Shown here piece after piece: positions 4,171 through 17,579 of a stretch of 39,494 nucleotides of DNA (its first letter is position 1; each line of letters begins with the position of its first letter). Where the stretch lies: IMG/VR virus record IMGVR_UViG_2711768073_000020, positions 1 to 39,494 of that record; one strand, 5' to 3'. Under the pieces are notes generated by a model that ran no database searches, had not been told where the DNA came from, and saw nothing but the letters and a program-made list of their open reading frames with translations. The DNA is from a virus. Its lineage: Duplodnaviria > Heunggongvirae > Uroviricota > Caudoviricetes. A program made the position numbers and the translations under genes.

Positions 4171-4995
4171 TCAGGCGGTGAAAGTACCAATAAAGGTTTC
4201 TACTTTGCTGTCCTTGAATTTCTCAACAAGCAGATCACGAAATTCGTTAGCCATTTCTTCCTGCACCGCCTCCAGCTGAATAATGCGCAGAACCAGTACC
4301 GGACGATCGCCAGTGATAATGCTGAGGCGTAATTTAAACGGACGTTCTTTCAGACCTTCAAACGGAATGCATTTAAATTCAAATGCCACTGGCATAATGT
4401 CTTTGGTCTTCGCTTCGACAGACTCCATCAGGGAGCGTTTGCCGCTGAAGTCATTATCTTCAAAATCAGCGGTCTGGTTTGCTTCAATCGTGATTTTACG
4501 GACCGCCGCAGCCGCTTTTGTTGCCTGAATGGTGTCACCATTAGCATCAAAGCCCACAAGGTAGTCGGCCCAGTCTTCAATCCATTCTGCCAGTGATTTC
4601 TGGGAGTTACGCTCGCCATTAACAGACAACAGAGCAGAGAACGGTGCTGTCTTTTTCAGTTTGAGAGTGGCGGTGTTATCTGCGTGACCTGGTTCATCAA
4701 TAGTACCCAGGTTAAGCACACTGACGGCACGCATATTATCAGCATCGATAAAGCAGCGGGTGCCTTCATCTGCAAGATCTTTAGAATAACGGGTAAAGTC
4801 ATCGATGCTGGCAGTGGAAAGCGCACCACGGAAACGGAAGCGATTTAAATTAAATTTTTCCAGATCATGAATGCGGAAATTCTCAGGCAATGCCACAGCA
4901 TCGGCACCAATCTTACTGATAATTTCATTAACACCCTGAGCAGAAATAAGGGCATGGATTTGATTAATTGCGGTTGCGTCTAAGTTCTGAGACAT
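4171..4995 (-). CDS. YfdQ-like (DUF2303-type) prophage protein, 274 aa
   Basis: ORF with GAGGA RBS 7 nt upstream of the ATG; size and position match the CPS-53-type yfdQ; function unknown. Confidence 0.6.
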
Positions 4996-11211: not shown

Positions 11212-12021
11212 ATGAATAATCTGATGGTCATTGATGGTATTGAAGTTCGTCGTGATGCTTATGGGCGTTACAGCCTGAACGATCTGCATCGCGCAGCAGT
11301 AGCATCTGGTGCAAATGCCAGAACCAAGGAGCCGGGAAAGTTTCTTTCCAGCCAACAAACTGTTGAGCTTGTTCATGAATTGACCAACACCCAGAATTTG
11401 GGTGTTGACCCAGTGAGTGTGATTCATGGGGGAAATGAACGGGGAACGTATGTCTGCAAGGAACTGGTGTATGCCTATGCAATGTGGATCAGCCCGTCAT
11501 TCCATCTGAAGGTGATCCGTACTTTCGATATGGTAACCAGCGCACCGGAAAAATTATCCGGACAGGCTGCTGACAAGATGCAGGCTGGCGTGATCCTGCT
11601 GGACTTTATGCGCCGGGAGTTAAACCTGTCTAACTCTTCAGTGCTTGGTGCCTGTCAGAAACTCCAGGAGGCTGTTGGCTTACCGAATCTGGCACCGCGC
11701 TATGCCATTGATGCTCCTGCTGACGCGCCTGATGGCTCAAGTCGCCCGACACTGTCACTGAGTGCACTGCTGAAACAGTATGGTATCCGCCTTACGGCTA
11801 ATCAGGCATATCACCAGATGGTGAAGCTGGGGATCGTCGAGCAGCGCGAACGATACAGCCGTACCTCGATTAACAACATCAAAAAATTCTGGTCGCTGAC
11901 AGCGAAAGGCTGCATGTTCGGCAAGAACATCACCAGTCCCGCAAATCCGCGCGAGACGCAGCCGCATTTCTTCGAATCCCGATTCCCTGAGCTGTTAAAG
12001 CTGCTCGATACCGTTCATTGA
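11212..12021 (+). CDS. KilA-N domain protein (antirepressor-like), 269 aa
   Basis: N-terminal MNNLMVIDGIEVRRDAYGRYSLNDLHRAA... KilA-N-type pattern; AGAGGAG RBS 9 nt upstream of ATG 11212. Confidence 0.55.
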   Translation: MNNLMVIDGIEVRRDAYGRYSLNDLHRAAVASGANARTKEPGKFLSSQQTVELVHELTNTQNLGVDPVSVIHGGNERGTYVCKELVYAYAMWISPSFHLKVIRTFDMVTSAPEKLSGQAADKMQAGVILLDFMRRELNLSNSSVLGACQKLQEAVGLPNLAPRYAIDAPADAPDGSSRPTLSLSALLKQYGIRLTANQAYHQMVKLGIVEQRERYSRTSINNIKKFWSLTAKGCMFGKNITSPANPRETQPHFFESRFPELLKLLDTVH

Positions 12022-12022
12022 G

Positions 12023-13018
12023 GTGACTGTGAGAGCACTACTGACCCCTGAAATTGCCCCGCGTATGGGGATCGTATTGTTCAGACCAGGTTCAGAGCTG
12101 ATGCCCTTGTTTATGCAGGGGCGTGTCTTGCTGGAGCCTGAGCCGGAACGTTATTCATCTTTCGCCAGTGGTGCCGTTCCGGCGGCATCACAACCGCTGG
12201 CGGATGATCCTGCCGTTCGGGCCGTGTTCCGCAATGAGGCAGTGATCCGTCGTGCTGGTGGCGTGGAATGTCTTGAAAGCTGGTTACTTCGTGAAAAAGG
12301 CTGCCAGTGGCCTCATTCCGACTGGCACAGCGAGAACATGACAACAATGCGACACGCTCCGGGCGCAATCCGTTTGTGCTGGCACTGCGATAACCAGCTG
12401 CGCGATCAGTTCACGGAACGGCTGGAATCAATGGCAACGGATAACAGTGCCCGCTGGGTGTTGTCTGTTGTGCGTCGGGATCTCGGTTTTGATGACAGTC
12501 ATGTTGTGACAATGCCGGAACTGTGCTGGTGGCTGATTCGTAATGATCTGGCGGATGCCTTACCGGAAAGTGCAGCCCGTAAGGCACTGAGATTACCGAA
12601 GCCTGTTGTGCCGTCTGTTACCCGGGAAAGTGACCTTGTGCCTTCGGTTCCTGCCACCAGCATCATCCAGGATAAGGCGAAAAAGGTGCTGGCGCTGAAA
12701 GTGGATCCGGAGTCGCCGGAGTCTTTTATGTTACGTCCCAAACGTCGCCGCTGGGTTAATGAAAAGTACACGCGATGGGTTAAGACGCAGCCGTGCGCAT
12801 GTTGTGGAAAACCTGCTGATGATCCCCACCACCTGATAGGTCACGGTCAGGGTGGAATGGCTACAAAAGCGCATGACCTCTTTGTGTTGCCTTTGTGCAG
12901 AAAGCATCACGACGAGCTGCATGCGGATACCGTGGCATTTGAAGAGAAGTATGGCTCCCAACTGGAGCTGATATTTCGTTTTATCGATCGCGCGCTGGCG
13001 ATTGGTGTGTTGGCCTGA
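12023..13018 (+). CDS. DUF968 protein (YdfU-like) with C-terminal zinc-finger/HNH-like motif, 331 aa
   Basis: C-terminal CACCGKPADDPHHLIGHGQGG...CRKHHDELH; GTG start, true start uncertain. Confidence 0.55.
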   Translation: MTVRALLTPEIAPRMGIVLFRPGSELMPLFMQGRVLLEPEPERYSSFASGAVPAASQPLADDPAVRAVFRNEAVIRRAGGVECLESWLLREKGCQWPHSDWHSENMTTMRHAPGAIRLCWHCDNQLRDQFTERLESMATDNSARWVLSVVRRDLGFDDSHVVTMPELCWWLIRNDLADALPESAARKALRLPKPVVPSVTRESDLVPSVPATSIIQDKAKKVLALKVDPESPESFMLRPKRRRWVNEKYTRWVKTQPCACCGKPADDPHHLIGHGQGGMATKAHDLFVLPLCRKHHDELHADTVAFEEKYGSQLELIFRFIDRALAIGVLA

Positions 13019-13035
13019 TTTGGTGGAGAAAGTTG

Positions 13036-13401
13036 ATGCGTGATATTCAGATGGTTCTGGAGCGTTGGGGAGCATGGGCGGCGAGTGATAGTTCTGGAGT
13101 AGACTATTCGCCTATAGCTGCTGGGTTTAAGGGGCTTCTTCCCTACACAAGCAAAACACGTCAGGCTTGTTCAGATAGTGATGCATTAATTATTGAAGGT
13201 TGTCTTGCTCGTCTAAAGCAAAAAAAGCCAGATGAGCACTCGCTGCTTGTGGCACATTATTTATACAGAATATCCAAGCGTAAGATTGCAAAGGTGCGTG
13301 GAAAGGATGAAAAATTGGTACGCATAGAAATACAACTAGCCGAAGGATTTATTGATGGTTGCCTTTCAATGTTGGATGTTAACCTTGAAATGGACGCTTA
13401 G
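13036..13401 (+). CDS. Late-gene antiterminator Q (phage-82/DLP12 QuuD-type small Q), 121 aa
   Basis: MRDIQMVLERWGAWAA...AAGFKGL...RLEMD pattern of the small Q family; GGAG RBS 8 nt upstream of ATG 13036. Confidence 0.75.
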   Translation: MRDIQMVLERWGAWAASDSSGVDYSPIAAGFKGLLPYTSKTRQACSDSDALIIEGCLARLKQKKPDEHSLLVAHYLYRISKRKIAKVRGKDEKLVRIEIQLAEGFIDGCLSMLDVNLEMDA

Positions 13402-13407
13402 GGTTGC

Positions 13408-13437
13408 ACAGGTTGGCCCCATATGAGGCCAACCTGT
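13408..13437. other. Perfect 11-bp-stem hairpin between convergent Q and the membrane-protein gene
   Basis: ACAGGTTGGCC-ccatatga-GGCCAACCTGT; starts 7 nt after the Q stop and overlaps the minus-strand gene's stop codon; no U-tract on either strand. Confidence 0.4.
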
Positions 13438-13886
13438 CACAAGTGGGGGAAGATTTTTCGTAACACTAACCAACACCTTCCGAAGGTATATAGCGAAATT
13501 ATAAGGGAGGATAAGCCTAACAGTATGAATAGGAAATCAATAGGTTTGCCCGCAACAATAACATCATCTGGTAGAAACATCGCTATCAATGGAAATATAC
13601 ATGCGACGATGAGAGTTAACCCTGTTGAAAGTAATCGATTTACCAGAGTTGGTAACACGTTGTTTTGCTTAAGGGCATTAATTGCTCCTTCCTTATCGCT
13701 GTTTGCACTACTAAATATAGATATTGCAGCCAGAACAAAACCAAACAGGATGCCTGATATAGTCGAGAGCACCCCCGCTGTTGTGAGTACGTCAGCATGC
13801 TTCATCGGTTTAAACAGTTTTGTCGCTGCATAGGTCAACAGAATCCAGAGGACGCATTTCCAGAGAAAAGTGGCTAATTCTCTCAT
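13437..13886 (-). CDS. Small integral membrane protein with four predicted TM helices (RexB-like architecture), ~149 aa
   Basis: Four hydrophobic segments (LATFLWKCVLWILLTYAA; VLSTISGILFGFVLAAISIF; LLSTGLTLIVACIFPLIAMFL; IDFLFILLGLSSLIISLYTF); GGAGG RBS before ATG 13886; 21 nt downstream of the 313-aa gene on the same strand; AT-rich by eye. Confidence 0.6.
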   Translation of the reverse strand: MRELATFLWKCVLWILLTYAATKLFKPMKHADVLTTAGVLSTISGILFGFVLAAISIFSSANSDKEGAINALKQNNVLPTLVNRLLSTGLTLIVACIFPLIAMFLPDDVIVAGKPIDFLFILLGLSSLIISLYTFGRCWLVLRKIFPHL

Positions 13887-13907
13887 TGTGTCCTCCATGC
13901 TTGGTTA

Positions 13908-14849
13908 TTAGTCTCTGCTAGCGAGCTCATACTGTGCAAGATAGTTCGCGTTATCAATTTTAGCAGATATCATCGCCGTTCTGATATCAGAATCGGATGG
14001 ATAACCGCTTTTGACAATGATTGTCTTTGTACTGACCAATACTTGGTCAAGTAGACTTTTGGGCGTTCTATTGGATGGCTCTGTTACATCAATTTTTTTA
14101 ATTTTTAGACCTCCAGAACCTTTTGGAAAAAGTTCAAGTAGTTCCTTAATAGCATCGGTGACAGAAGTTTTTAGATAGTTAAAACCTTGTTTTTTCGGGC
14201 GAATCCGACCTCGCATATTTAATCTTAGATGCGACCCGCCCATACCAACAACCATGTCAATAATTTCATTAGCTAAAGGGTTTTTAATCTTATAATTAGC
14301 TTTGTTAAAGTTTCTTGGAGCAGCAACTATAAGATCGAAACTACGTAGGATATTTCCGTCCTCAAGCAGTTCCTTCATGCTCTCTTGTTTCCAAATGGCT
14401 TCAAAAGTGACGCTTTTTAAATCAGTTTTGTTATACAAAATGAATGCCAGATCATTTACTTTGGGCCCTATATGGTTGAGGGTCATAGCTAATAAGTCCG
14501 TTTCGTAGTAATAGATAAAATATGTTCTTTCAACTACAGAATCTTTATCATTTAAAGGAATTGTTCTCTCACTACCTGTAGCATCCTCGATGAACGGTAG
14601 TAGGCATTCCCTTCTCCACGATACGTAACCAAAGTAACATTGCAGTGTGGTATCTTTTTGAAGAATAACTAACTTTAACCCTCGATTTGGGGTGTCTGTT
14701 GTGTAAGTTATTGGAAAAGTTACAGTATCTGCTGTGGTCATTTGCTCAAAGGCTAGTTTTGCAGCAGATGTGCCATCTTTTTTGCTTCCATTACCAGTGA
14801 AAAAACCAACTCTCACTCGCCTGGTTTTATTCTTATTTTCTGTACTCAT
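13908..14849 (-). CDS. 313-aa soluble protein of unknown function, co-operonic with the 4-TM protein (candidate RexA-like sensor)
   Basis: Basic N-terminus (KNKTRRVRV); no enzymatic motif recognised; AT-rich coding sequence, antisense to all flanking phage genes; candidate promoter on the minus strand upstream (TTGTTG...TAAAAT). Confidence 0.6.
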   Translation of the reverse strand: MSTENKNKTRRVRVGFFTGNGSKKDGTSAAKLAFEQMTTADTVTFPITYTTDTPNRGLKLVILQKDTTLQCYFGYVSWRRECLLPFIEDATGSERTIPLNDKDSVVERTYFIYYYETDLLAMTLNHIGPKVNDLAFILYNKTDLKSVTFEAIWKQESMKELLEDGNILRSFDLIVAAPRNFNKANYKIKNPLANEIIDMVVGMGGSHLRLNMRGRIRPKKQGFNYLKTSVTDAIKELLELFPKGSGGLKIKKIDVTEPSNRTPKSLLDQVLVSTKTIIVKSGYPSDSDIRTAMISAKIDNANYLAQYELASRD

Positions 14850-14910
14850 TATCGATCCGAAATAATTTTAGCAACCGTGTGAAAAATACAACAAAAAAAA
14901 GAGGAAATCA

Positions 14911-14939
14911 TTAGCGCGGTCCGCAAAAAACATTGTAAT
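14911..14939 (+). promoter_or_regulatory. Candidate late promoter PR' (-35 TTAGCG, 17-nt spacer, -10 TGTAAT)
   Basis: Only plausible sigma-70-like promoter upstream of the intrinsic terminator at 14972-15003 and the lysis cassette; weak -35. Confidence 0.3.
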
Positions 14940-14971
14940 CTGTTAAGAGTGGTTACTTCGCCACACAGCTT

Positions 14972-15003
14972 AAACCCGCCGTCGAGCGGGTTTTGTCGTT
15001 TCT
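14972..15003 (+). terminator. Intrinsic terminator (tR'-like) upstream of the lysis genes
   Basis: Stem AAACCCGC / GCGGGTTT with loop CGTCGA followed by TTTTGTCGTTTCT. Confidence 0.6.
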
Positions 15004-15145
15004 GTGGCTGGGGATTCGTTGGTCCTGGCCTATTCCGCAGTTCTCCATCGGTTCGGCTTCTTTGATGTTTCCGCTTCTGATTTGCGGTACATGATGTTCC
15101 CTCAATTTGCACCTGCTGTATCAGCGAGGTGAGAGATAACTACAA

Positions 15146-15472
15146 ATGCCTCATAACCCAAATACCTGGCTGGAGTTGGTCCAGAGCTGGTGGCGTGGAG
15201 ACACACCGCTGGGCGCAGTGATTATGTCGATCGTTATGGCTGGCTTGCGCATTGCCTATTTTGGCGGTGGTGGTGGCTGGAAACGAAAAACGCTCGAGAT
15301 TTTGCTCTGTGGTGCTCTGACGCTGACTTTTGCATCCGCTCTTGAGTATGTCGGATGGCCTAAATCTCTTTCTGTTGCCATTGGTGGCGGCGTTGGGCTG
15401 ATCGGGGTCGATGCTATTCGTGGGGCTGCAATGAGAGTAATCGGTAATAAGTTTGGTGGCTCTAAGGAGTAA
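15146..15472 (+). CDS. Holin, 108 aa
   Basis: Small protein with hydrophobic helices (LGAVIMSIVMAGLRIAYF; LEILLCGALTLTFASALEYVGW; AIGGGVGLIGV) and a charged C-terminus, immediately upstream of the endolysin. Confidence 0.7.
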   Translation: MPHNPNTWLELVQSWWRGDTPLGAVIMSIVMAGLRIAYFGGGGGWKRKTLEILLCGALTLTFASALEYVGWPKSLSVAIGGGVGLIGVDAIRGAAMRVIGNKFGGSKE

Positions 15473-15475
15473 TTT

Positions 15476-15952
15476 ATGCAGGTACTAAATTCCCAGCGTA
15501 AAGCTTTCCTGGATATGGTGGCATGGTCAGAAGGAACGGATAACGGGCGACAACCGACACGTAACCACGGTTATGACGTTATTGTCGGTGGCGAACTCTT
15601 CACTGATTACTCCGATCACCCTCGCAAACTTGTCACGCTAAACCCGAAACTCAAATCAACAGCTGCAGGCCGTTATCAACTTCTTTCACGTTGGTGGGAT
15701 GCTTACCGCAAGCAGCTTGGGCTGAAAGACTTCTCTCCCAGAAGCCAGGACTCAGTGGCATTACAGCAGATTAAAGAGCGTGGCGCTTTACCGATGATTG
15801 ATCGCGGCAATATTCGTCAGGCAATCGACCGTTGCAGCAATATCTGGGCGTCTTTACCTGGTGCAGGTTACGGTCAGTATGAACATAAAATTGGCGACCT
15901 GATTTCCCGGTTTAAAGAGGCTGGTGGGGTGGTAAATGAAGCTGAGATATAA
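15476..15952 (+). CDS. R: Endolysin, lambda R-type lytic transglycosylase, 158 aa
   Basis: NSQRKAFLDMVAWSEGTDNGRQPTRNHGYDVIVGGELFTDYSDHPRKLV... is near-identical in pattern to lambda R. Confidence 0.9.
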   Translation: MQVLNSQRKAFLDMVAWSEGTDNGRQPTRNHGYDVIVGGELFTDYSDHPRKLVTLNPKLKSTAAGRYQLLSRWWDAYRKQLGLKDFSPRSQDSVALQQIKERGALPMIDRGNIRQAIDRCSNIWASLPGAGYGQYEHKIGDLISRFKEAGGVVNEAEI

Positions 15953-16328
15953 GCTGGTTATTGTTGCCTTCTTTGTTACCGTCATTGGTTCCTTCATCTG
16001 GTCTGCCGGGCATTACTACAGCAAATATCTGCACGAAAAGGAGCGTGCTGATGAGGCTATACGAAATGCTGAATCAGCAACTGCCATTACCCGTAACGTT
16101 CTGCAATCACTGCAAATCATCAATACAGTTATAGAGGCTAACCAGCATGCAAAACAGCAGATTGCACTGGAGTCACAGAAAACCCAGGAAGATATCAAAG
16201 TGGCTGTTGCGGATGATGATTGTGCTTCACGTCCTGTGCCTGCTGCCGCTGCTGACCGGTTGCGGAAGTACGCGGACAGTTTACGTGAACACTCCGGCGG
16301 TACCACTGCCAGCCAGCTTGACTTCTGA
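15936..16328 (+). CDS. i-spanin (Rz-like), 130 aa
   Basis: N-terminal TM anchor (LVIVAFFVTVIGSFIW) followed by charged helical region; overlaps the endolysin end; an o-spanin ORF starts inside it in another frame. Confidence 0.6.
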   Translation: MKLRYKLVIVAFFVTVIGSFIWSAGHYYSKYLHEKERADEAIRNAESATAITRNVLQSLQIINTVIEANQHAKQQIALESQKTQEDIKVAVADDDCASRPVPAAAADRLRKYADSLREHSGGTTASQLDF

Positions 16329-16461
16329 TACACCTGTACCGTTTATACCCAACCCACTGACGTATGGTGCAAGTCTTGATTTGAATGTAAGTTTGTTATC
16401 CGCGTTGGCTCAATGTAATAGGGATAAGTCTGATATCAGAATCATTGATAATCAAAATTGA
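16213..16461 (+). CDS. o-spanin (Rz1-like) lipoprotein, ~82 aa
   Basis: Signal peptide plus lipobox MMIVLHVLCLLPLLTGC, Pro-rich mature part; starts inside Rz in a different frame and extends 133 nt beyond its stop. Confidence 0.6.
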   Translation: MMIVLHVLCLLPLLTGCGSTRTVYVNTPAVPLPASLTSDTPVPFIPNPLTYGASLDLNVSLLSALAQCNRDKSDIRIIDNQN

Positions 16462-16664
16462 TGTATATTTTTATCGTCATGTAGATAACGAACAAGGTAT
16501 TCCTCTGATACGTTTCGTTGAATACAGGTCATGGGTAGGCATTGCAATATCGCTTCGAAATTATCTGTGATAATGCTCTTAATTTTGAATGTATGTATTT
16601 GGGAAAAGAGATAAAGTAATAGTCTAATTAATGGAGATATCCACAAAACACAAAAGGGACTATT

Positions 16665-17171
16665 ATGCGACCAGATCAATTTTTCTATCCAGATACTTTT
16701 ACCTTTAATTCATCCACCTATTATGGTCAACGTGACTCATCTAAAGGTCGATTGTATATTCCTATTGAAAGTGACTTATGTCCATTTAATATCGGCGATA
16801 TCATTGTGCAAAAAATGGTCGACAGGGAAAGACTATTTGAAGTGCTTGATTACGAGGTGCAAATTAGTCTCGAGGCTGGTTGCCCTGGCTACTCACATTT
16901 GGCGGTATTGATAGTGAATGCATTGGATGTAAAAGAGAAGCCGAAGCAGATTACGACCCATTTGACGTTTAACGGTGCTATTAATGCTGGTGGTGATTTT
17001 CAAGCCGGTAATGACAATTCGATCACAAAGAATATAACCATTCAACAACTACATGATGCTATAGAGCATTGCAATGATCCAGAGGTTAAAAGCCTTTGGC
17101 AAAAGCTATTGGAAAATCCGACGTTTGCTTCAATTGCTTCAATATTGGCAAAAAGTGCTTTAGGACAGTAA
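16665..17171 (+). CDS. Hypothetical cargo protein, 168 aa (AT-rich, between lysis and packaging genes)
   Basis: AAGGGA RBS 6 nt upstream; preceded by a ~200-bp AT-rich spacer and followed by its own terminator; no signal peptide or motif recognised. Confidence 0.5.
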   Translation: MRPDQFFYPDTFTFNSSTYYGQRDSSKGRLYIPIESDLCPFNIGDIIVQKMVDRERLFEVLDYEVQISLEAGCPGYSHLAVLIVNALDVKEKPKQITTHLTFNGAINAGGDFQAGNDNSITKNITIQQLHDAIEHCNDPEVKSLWQKLLENPTFASIASILAKSALGQ

Positions 17172-17180
17172 TTCATCAAG

Positions 17181-17202
17181 CCCCATTCAATATGGGGTTT
17201 TT
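17181..17202 (+). terminator. Intrinsic terminator after the 168-aa gene
   Basis: CCCCAT-tcaat-ATGGGG followed by TTTTT. Confidence 0.65.
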
Positions 17203-17228: not shown

Positions 17229-17579
17229 ATGCCACCACGAACTCCAAAAGCCTGCCGTGTTCGCGGGTGCCGCCGTACCACCACTGACCCGTCAGGTTAT
17301 TGCGAAAGCCACAAAAGCGAAGGCTGGAAGCAATACAAGCCAGGACAATCCCGTCATCAGCGCGGCTACGGTTCGAAGTGGGACGTTATCCGCGCGCGTG
17401 TGCTGAAACGTGACAAAGGTTTATGTCAGTTATGTCTGCGCGCTGGTGTGGTGCGTGAGGCGAAAACTGTTGACCACATCATCCCTAAAGCGCATGGCGG
17501 CACTGATGCCGACTGTAATCTGCAGAGTCTGTGCTGGCCGTGTCATAAGGCGAAGACGGCCCGTGAACGGTTGAAGTGA
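17229..17579 (+). CDS. HNH endonuclease (terminase-associated), copy 1, 116 aa
   Basis: Cys-rich zinc motifs (CRVRGC...CESH) and HNH core (DHIIPKAHGGTDADCNLQSLCWPCH); 5' part only ~88% identical to copy 2 at the DNA level. Confidence 0.8.
   Translation: MPPRTPKACRVRGCRRTTTDPSGYCESHKSEGWKQYKPGQSRHQRGYGSKWDVIRARVLKRDKGLCQLCLRAGVVREAKTVDHIIPKAHGGTDADCNLQSLCWPCHKAKTARERLK

Follow-up and report, generated by a model that had tools for sequence, protein, structure and literature searches.

In phages lambda and 21, the late promoter PR' directly abuts the gene for the antiterminator Q. The lambda switch combines a constitutive promoter, a short terminated transcript (6S RNA), a Q-binding element within the promoter and a Q protein that acts in trans to carry transcription past the terminator tR'; its pause element spans +1 to +6, with a pause at +16/17. 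In phage 21, whose Q protein (Q21; structures 6P18, 6P19 and 6JNX) belongs to family PF06530, the order is -35, Q-binding element, -10, start, TAAG element, short leader and intrinsic terminator, and the annotated parts of PR' are the -35 TTGACA, the Q-binding elements QBEu (ATTGAGCA) and QBEd (AATGAGCA), the -10, the start, the pause element TAAGCTG and tR'. A study of Shiga toxin (Stx) phages has described pR' regions that "lacked the pR' site" (PMC6266700). Here we analyse a lambdoid prophage with SfII and SfV among its relatives, a stretch of 39,494 nucleotides (nt), IMG/VR record IMGVR_UViG_2711768073_000020, referred to below as the window. In contrast to phages lambda and 21, PR' of the window is cut off from Q by cargo, an antisense two-gene cassette, with 1508 bp between the Q stop codon and the start of the promoter region. 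We conclude that positions 14910-15003 are very probably the cognate late control module of this Q, comprising PR', the Q-utilisation site and tR', and that the cassette sits in a conserved cargo slot between the two.

The module is a conserved unit of about 90 bp with a -35, a palindrome, an A-tract, a -10, a leader of about 50 nt and an intrinsic terminator. Together with Q and the first late genes, its parts are as follows.

13036-13401, plus strand: Q antiterminator gene, 121 amino acids (aa); PF06530, PHROG 79; C-terminal helix-turn-helix.
14911-14916, plus strand: weak -35-like hexamer TTAGCG, 19 bp upstream of the -10, overlapping the left arm of the palindrome.
14916-14930, plus strand: probable Q-binding element, the 9-bp palindrome GCGGTCCGC (14916-14924) with a conserved A-tract (14925-14930).
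14936-14941, plus strand: -10 hexamer TAATCT of PR', of the form TAnnnT that is invariant in relatives.
14941-14950, plus strand: further -10-like element, extended by TG (TGTTAAGAGT), which may serve as a sigma-dependent pause element.
14947-15003, plus strand: predicted leader transcript of about 50 nt, with a stem near its 5' end, ending at the terminator.
14972-15003, plus strand: tR'-like intrinsic terminator, AAACCCGC-CGTCGA-GCGGGTTT followed by TGTCGTTTCT.
15146-15472, 15476-15952 and 15936-16328, plus strand: first late genes, holin S, endolysin R and Rz (PF05106, E 5.7e-25).

The relatives of the window show what the locus looks like with other inserts or with none. Where there is no cassette, as in Stx phage 1720a-02 (ATTAGCGCGGTCCGC...GTTAAGAGTGGTTACTTCGCCACACAGCTTAAACCCGCC...GGGTTTT) and contigs related to it, only 6 nt separate the Q stop codon from the module, and megablast against phage records gave two-piece matches bridging Q and the block at 14910-14994. 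Some Stx phages, such as 1720a-02, share the Q class and module of the window. Between Q and the module, cdtI carries the same kind of two-gene antisense cassette, PhiR40_1 one antisense gene, and SfII an unrelated pair of antisense genes. When IMG/VR was scanned with the 24-nt core of the module, 119 loci were found; exactly one PF06530 Q lies upstream on the same strand in all 110 with enough upstream sequence (the window and phage records included), and in these loci the block starts between -5 and 3748 bp from the Q stop codon. As a guard against circularity, 80 loci from different Enterobacterales species in GTDB were sampled through Q alone, and the module profile matched downstream of Q in 76 of them. 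Over all relatives the gap ranges from -39 to 5332 bp and holds unrelated, mostly antisense cargo. Q is diffusible and works in trans, which leaves it free to lie at any distance from PR'. Parts of the 2.2-kb region from Q to the holin gene were matched in 3874 of 5426 complete Escherichia coli genomes, and the exact order Q, cassette, module and holin was present in 73. The usual layout, with PR' directly downstream of Q, is not that of the window.

These results agree with most of what an earlier note had proposed for this DNA. The end of Q at 13401 is confirmed by the open reading frame list and the PF06530 match. The late promoter and terminator are indeed displaced from Q by about 1.5 kb (1508 bp here, against 6 nt in 1720a-02), and the cassette does appear to have been inserted between Q and its site, as the module abuts Q where there is no cassette and the palindrome tracks the Q class. 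The proposed tR'-like terminator within 14911-15003, upstream of the lysis genes, is upheld by the terminator scan, the predicted fold and the relatives.

Two side observations were made in this survey. In several species (L133, L134, L137, L138, L140, L154, L169 and L170) the start of the module overlaps the last 24-39 nt of Q, which makes the putative Q-binding element coding sequence there. Three loci with an enterobacterial Q and module have GTDB titles of a Bacillus sp. metagenome-assembled genome, a Chryseobacterium sp. and a Vagococcus sp. (L127, L133 and L136), and are probably contaminating contigs.

The Q protein of the window matches PF06530 over the full-length model (positions 1-118; E 7.5e-52; 174.7 bits, cut-off 26), and PHROG 79 is annotated as "anti-termination protein Q-like". 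The best PDB matches of its AlphaFold2 model (predicted local distance difference test score 79) are Q21 chains, with a probability of 0.92-0.99. Residues ~47-112 of the model superpose at ~2 Å on sigma region 4, the -35-binding domain of extracytoplasmic function sigma factors (3HUG, 2H27). The putative Q-binding site overlaps the -35 region of PR', and the sigma-4-like C-terminal half would fit docking on that side of the promoter. The recognition helix, DEKLVRIEIQ, lies within the C-terminal helix-turn-helix, and it is chiefly in this helix-turn-helix that the Q proteins differ across loci. The 8-10-bp palindrome is centred at a fixed register (14916-14924 in the window) and varies with the recognition helix: each of eight helix classes goes with its own one of eight palindrome types, in 183 of 183 loci and with zero exceptions.

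Helix DEKxIRI: palindrome GCGGTCCGC.
Helix SDGTIRK: palindrome GCGTACGC.
Helix SDxxVGR / IGKR (QuuD type): palindrome ACRATCGT / ACGTACGT.
Helix SLNQVVIR: palindrome TGTTATAACA.
Helix SEGLIRQ: palindrome GCGCTACGC.
Helix SEGMIRI: palindrome GCGTTACGC.
Helix SEGKIRQ: palindrome TTCGTAACGAA.
Helix SHTQVLKR: palindrome TGGAATTCCA.

Each class has a single palindrome (e.g. GCGGTCCGC, GCGTACGC, ACGATCGT, TGTTATAACA, TTCGTAACGAA and TGGAATTCCA) and not the two 8-bp direct repeats of the Q21 type. The pairing is kept whatever the gap size (dozens were seen), the cargo (55 architectures) or the kind of downstream genes (two), and it survives recombination between palindrome and -10; one -10 segment, ACATTGTAATCT, was found behind two different palindromes. 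Classes 3 and 4 have the N-terminal half of Q and the upstream genes in common, and only the helix-turn-helix and the palindrome differ. Mere linkage would be expected to break occasionally under such shuffling and never does, and the palindrome is thus most likely the Q-binding element.

Invariance of the promoter was assessed in 60 dereplicated modules from different species, found through Q and not through the core pattern. T-6, A-5 and T-1 of the -10 hexamer (TAnnnT; numbering by module position) are invariant in all 60. At the -35 register, 18-19 bp upstream of the -10, Q-anchored modules conserve yTAnyG, and class 2 modules have TTAACG with an 18-bp spacer. In the window, the palindrome GCGGTCCGC and the core TAAGAGTGGTTAC occur once each.

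A transcription start is available for the module of DLP12, a prophage of E. coli K-12 in which the order is quuD, antisense nmpC (a porin gene interrupted by IS5), module and essD. The DLP12 module has one core mismatch and a palindrome, ACGTACGT, that matches its QuuD-class helix, and lies ~125 nt before the holin gene. It differs from that of the window in its good -35 (TTTACG) and 16-bp spacer, and Q class, cargo, holin and endolysin types all differ as well. Among the Cappable-seq starts tabulated by Ettwiller et al. (PMC4782308), one on the plus strand falls at U00096.2 576452. This is the sole plus-strand start between 576081 and 576907 in that table, and it was seen in uninduced K-12. 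Assuming a coordinate offset of +776, it falls 6 nt after the DLP12 hexamer TATGCT, at module position 5. By equivalence, the start in the window is predicted at or near G14947/A14948. The promoter would have been a guess on the window sequence alone, and becomes solid through the comparison with relatives and the DLP12 start.

Other placements of the promoter fit less well. If TAnnnT were a pause element with a promoter farther upstream, the would-be -10 would be GCAAAA, and there is no conservation upstream of position -32. If TAAGAG were the promoter -10, the K-12 start would be expected at position 13-15 and not at 5/6, where it falls. Candidates for a minus-strand promoter within the module (TACAAT or TAAGCT) are not conserved. 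The primers given in PMC7918800 place the +1 of Rueggeberg ~350 nt upstream of the module, which makes it a different start. The supplement of Adams 2021 (3'-end data) has no entry at the DLP12 terminator, and the Cappable-seq supplements for EDL933 gave no sequence match. In a register like that of phage 21, a start at position 0/1 from the weaker hexamer CATTGT (14931-14936) is possible in some classes, including that of the window; this hexamer, at positions -11 to -6, is only ~55% conserved and is absent from DLP12.

As a side observation, DLP12 (L124, about 4347-4359) has a strong plus-strand start at U00096.2 576081 (score 90), behind a TATTAT -10 and 32 nt upstream of the nmpC start codon, which is on the other strand. 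A cargo-borne promoter thus fires toward PR'/tR' and the lysis genes.

In the second -10-like element, TGnTAAGAGT, T-1, G0, T2 and A3 are invariant and AGAGT is near-invariant across Q-anchored modules. A similar sequence, TAAGCTG, is annotated in OL657228 as the pause element of phage 21. When the two loci are aligned on TAAG, the palindrome of the window coincides with QBEu and the A-tract at 14925-14930 with QBEd. Phage 21 has two 8-bp direct repeats whereas the window has one palindrome (8-10 bp across classes) and an A-tract, and Q21 has 162 aa against 121 aa for the Q of the window. The window has an invariant -10 between the binding element and TAAG, so that the mapped start overlaps TAAG, whereas in phage 21 the start precedes it. 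TGnTAAGAGT follows the invariant -10 at a distance of just 8 bp, and the DLP12 start overlaps with it (positions -4 to +3). Three explanations are possible: sigma may re-engage very early, with a pause near +9 to +12, Q may load during initial transcription, or some classes may start at position 0/1, in the register of phage 21 described above.

Lambda has a Q of the unrelated family PF03589 and a leader of 194 nt. The leader of the window is far shorter and ends at a hairpin (14972-14993) with a stem of 8 bp, five of them G-C, a loop of 6 nt and then TGTCGTTTCT; this is the strongest terminator-like site in 12000-17000, and hairpin and T-run lie 150 nt before the holin gene. The 56-nt leader RNA (14948-15003) has a predicted folding energy of -19.6 kcal/mol (z = -3.1), and none of 200 shuffles folds as well. 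Of 61 Q-anchored loci, 44 have a hairpin with a T-run no more than 100 nt from the module, compared with 21 of 280 control windows (7.5%). The hairpin sequences differ between genera, while their position is constant (3' end 51-69 nt from the core). Within the leader, an inner stem GUGGU/GCCAC pairs 14949-14953 with 14960-14964, and Xenorhabdus and Rosenbergiella relatives show compensatory GUGA/UCAC changes in it. Base pairs were counted by script, as the ungapped MAFFT alignment misplaces loops that are 1 nt shorter. An Rfam search of 13350-15200 returned chance snoRNA matches only.

An outer stem, UUAAG/CUUAA (within 14943-14973), was also observed, with its 5' arm upstream of the mapped start. 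At the position that closes this stem, base and partner covary (T-A 29, A-T 10, A-C 11). With a start at position 0/1, in the register of phage 21, the outer stem would be in the RNA.

The S/R region of the window is 96% identical to that of SfII, which has the same module upstream. Two contexts were seen 3' of the terminator, either the holin gene directly (window, SfII) or, as in Stx phages, a small open reading frame and a DNA methylase gene (1720a-02, cdtI, PhiR40_1). The module recombines on both sides.

Several points weigh against the assignment of the module to Q. At the protein level, the match to the solved Q21 is marginal in sequence (phmmer E 0.002, residues 8-86), and the Foldseek scores of the model against Q21 are below significance (E 0.016, template modelling score 0.4-0.5, root-mean-square deviation >10 Å). 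Q binding and Q-dependent read-through are, for this Q class, predictions from sequence. Some of the conservation inside the 24-nt search pattern and the nhmmer profile arises by construction, which does not apply to the pairing of Q and palindrome. The promoter has a poor -35 and an 18-19 bp spacer. Of the plausible PR' that had been noted earlier at 14911-14946, the invariant -10 and the DLP12 start speak for it, whereas the consensus promoter scan called nothing there; the scan missed it because the -35 is weak. No conserved TAnnnT lies farther downstream, and there is no conventional sigma-dependent pause element past the mapped start, which the TAAGAG element overlaps. The K-12 start itself has a weak signal (score 1.7) and comes from another Q class, although weakness is unsurprising for a transcript of only ~50 nt. 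Its position in the module depends on the offset from U00096.2 to NC_000913.3, which we take to be +776 from lacZ coordinates, to within 1 nt.

The module might also be a promoter-attenuator of the lysis genes that does not depend on Q and responds, for example, to stress or sigma-E, with the palindrome as the operator of another regulator. Control of the DLP12 lysis operon by RpoE and Hha, cited in PMC7918800, counts in favour of this, as does a K-12 start seen without induction. A constitutive start with early termination is, however, what PR' itself should show. The palindrome moreover follows the helix of Q itself while the neighbouring genes stay constant, as in classes 3 and 4 with their shared upstream genes and Q N-terminus, and the module matches phage 21 PR' element by element. 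We therefore consider a Q-independent attenuator very improbable.

The region between Q and its module holds the following features.

13437-14849, minus strand: antisense two-gene cassette, encoding a 313-aa protein (13908-14849) and then a 153-aa multi-pass membrane protein (13437-13898).
13408-13437, minus strand: perfect hairpin with an 11-bp stem, which immediately follows the stop codon of the 153-aa gene and has no U-tract on either strand.
14865-14873, minus strand: candidate extended -10 of the leftward promoter of the cassette, TGCTAAAAT, read from the sequence and back to back with PR'.

The cassette has a low G+C content (0.34-0.44) and is separated from the module by a 60-nt A/T-rich spacer. 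Its proteins gave no significant match to Pfam, PADLOC or NCBIfam (sub-threshold only for the 153-aa protein) and fall into PHROGs 7651 and 8552, of unknown function; in hhalign comparisons with the other two-gene cassettes of the slot, a Kosakonia cassette (95%) was the one relative. The candidate promoter TGCTAAAAT was not flagged in the consensus scan and is not conserved across cassette variants.

The hairpin at 13408-13437 is strongest as minus-strand RNA (-27.3 kcal/mol, z = -5.8). Three sequence variants of the cassette each have a different hairpin directly after the Q stop codon, in the cdtI-type variant a canonical bidirectional terminator, AAAAAAGGGCATTTCTGCCCTTTTT. Such variant-specific hairpins mark 13408-13437 as the place where the cassette ends on its 3' side, with the hairpin as a convergent insulator that separates it from Q. 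The hairpin had earlier been thought a possible part of either promoter arrangement, and on this evidence belongs to neither.

The second of these arrangements has PR' directly downstream of Q (13402-13460), with late transcripts running antisense through the cassette and 14911-15003 as an internal terminator or attenuator. It would follow the textbook phages lambda and 21, in which PR' abuts Q. The spacer between Q and the cassette is, however, only 35 nt long and entirely hairpin, and no promoter-like site was found in the consensus scan of 13402-13460. The sequence after the Q stop codon differs wholly between cassette types, even between variants of one cassette, and the distal module is the only non-coding element that tracks the Q class. 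Relatives without a cassette have this distal module, and no other promoter, beside Q, and the DLP12 start maps to it. We regard a promoter next to Q as extremely improbable. The earlier note had attached to this alternative a coupling of induction to silencing of the cassette. Late transcription begins beyond the cassette, at the distal module, and is unable to silence it. If any transcription runs antisense into the cassette, we infer that it can only be early transcription that passes through Q.

The interval from the Q stop codon to the module (13402-14909 in the window) was compared across related loci (L004-L206). Among 139 related loci with an insert, we distinguished 55 gene architectures and 81 protein families, with 92% of coding bases antisense; the cassette of the window is the commonest architecture. 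Matches to defence genes in related loci include KwaA and KwaB of Kiwa (E 1.9e-83 and 2.3e-150), a type II C5-methyltransferase with an NsnA-like protein, PDC-S20, a HEC-04/OLD-like ATPase and PDC-M53A. The cargo of DLP12 is the porin gene nmpC. Phage 434B, in which the phage's own Q, late promoter and lysis region are replaced by the DLP12 segment from Q through nmpC and promoter to lysis genes, still forms plaques (PMC9119081), which indicates that the split layout is functional. The late switch of the window lies 1.5 kb from Q because the junction of Q and its promoter is a widely used slot for antisense cargo, often anti-phage defence genes.

Stx phages likewise carry accessory genes, stx and tRNA morons, between Q and the lysis genes, and their lysogens make a short RNA from PR' (PMC7547250), which acts as the small RNA StxS. 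Their stx genes lie downstream of PR'-tR', in sense orientation, and are reached by Q-dependent read-through, whereas in the window the cargo is antisense, on the upstream side of PR', and forms no part of the late transcript. The hotspots described in 2022 (PMC9122126) also have conserved flanks around hypervariable cargo, including known anti-phage systems; they differ in phage type and position, and the slot of the window splits a regulator gene from its cis-acting target. Our literature searches, of incomplete coverage, returned P2/P4 hotspots and general reviews of morons, and no description of a Q-PR' slot or of the palindromic elements.

Conserved sequence on both sides of a hypervariable slot, and A-rich promoter-like DNA just left of the module, would also suit a block whose chief role is that of an anchor at which cassettes are exchanged by homologous recombination, or of a divergent promoter for the cargo, and whose palindrome has no role in late control. 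An anchor does not, however, need an invariant -10, a terminator at a fixed distance or an allele-specific palindrome, and the block is just as conserved where there is no cargo. Such a role may hold in addition to late control; that it holds instead of it seems to us very improbable.

A second stretch of low G+C content (0.34-0.40) was observed after Rz/Rz1 (16330-17200), with a plus-strand open reading frame of 168 aa (16665-17171). It precedes genes for an HNH endonuclease (17229-17579) and a small terminase, and may be another cargo slot.

With 14910-15003 as the late control module of Q, a working scheme can be proposed. The comparisons show the anatomy of the module, its place beside Q where there is no cassette, the covariation of palindrome and Q class and the conserved -10 and terminator, and K-12 adds a start in the orthologous module; that Q binds the palindrome and brings about read-through, that it pauses or loads as described here, and that the cassette has its own promoter is inferred. 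RNA polymerase would start constitutively at PR' (-10 at 14936-14941, start at ~14947/14948), make a leader of about 50 nt and stop at the hairpin and T-run of 14972-15003. After induction, Q would be made from the early rightward transcript, and its sigma-4-like helix-turn-helix would bind GCGGTCCGC, probably together with the A-tract (14916-14930). Q would then join the polymerase near the start site, probably at TGnTAAGAGT, and the modified polymerase would pass tR' into S, R, Rz and the late operon. The cassette would be transcribed from its own leftward promoter and end at the hairpin of 13408-13437, and would remain upstream of PR' and outside the late transcript.

This arrangement is a variant of the classical Q/PR'/tR' switch and is already present, unannotated, in K-12. 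What it adds to the known systems is the cargo slot, the matched classes of Q and palindrome, and the odd position of the pause-like element. We suggest tentatively, and with somewhat more doubt than conviction, a wider reading: the Q-PR' junction would be a dedicated cargo slot, enriched in defence genes, across the lambdoid prophages of the order Enterobacterales, tolerated because Q works in trans; in this branch of PF06530, Q would recognise one palindrome that co-evolves with the sigma-4-like helix, and an unusually early loading of Q, at a TG-extended -10-like element 8 bp past the -10 (through a pause near +9 to +12 or during initial transcription), would constitute a distinct loading mode.

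The module provides a rule for locating the late promoter in thousands of enterobacterial prophages. As the cargo of the slot lies outside the late transcript, its expression would be set in the lysogen and not by Q, the reverse of what holds for stx. For new defence genes the slot offers a compact hunting ground, in which the two-gene cassette of the window is an uncharacterised candidate, and the eight matched pairs of Q helix and palindrome are a natural specificity-swap set for the reading of DNA by PF06530 proteins.

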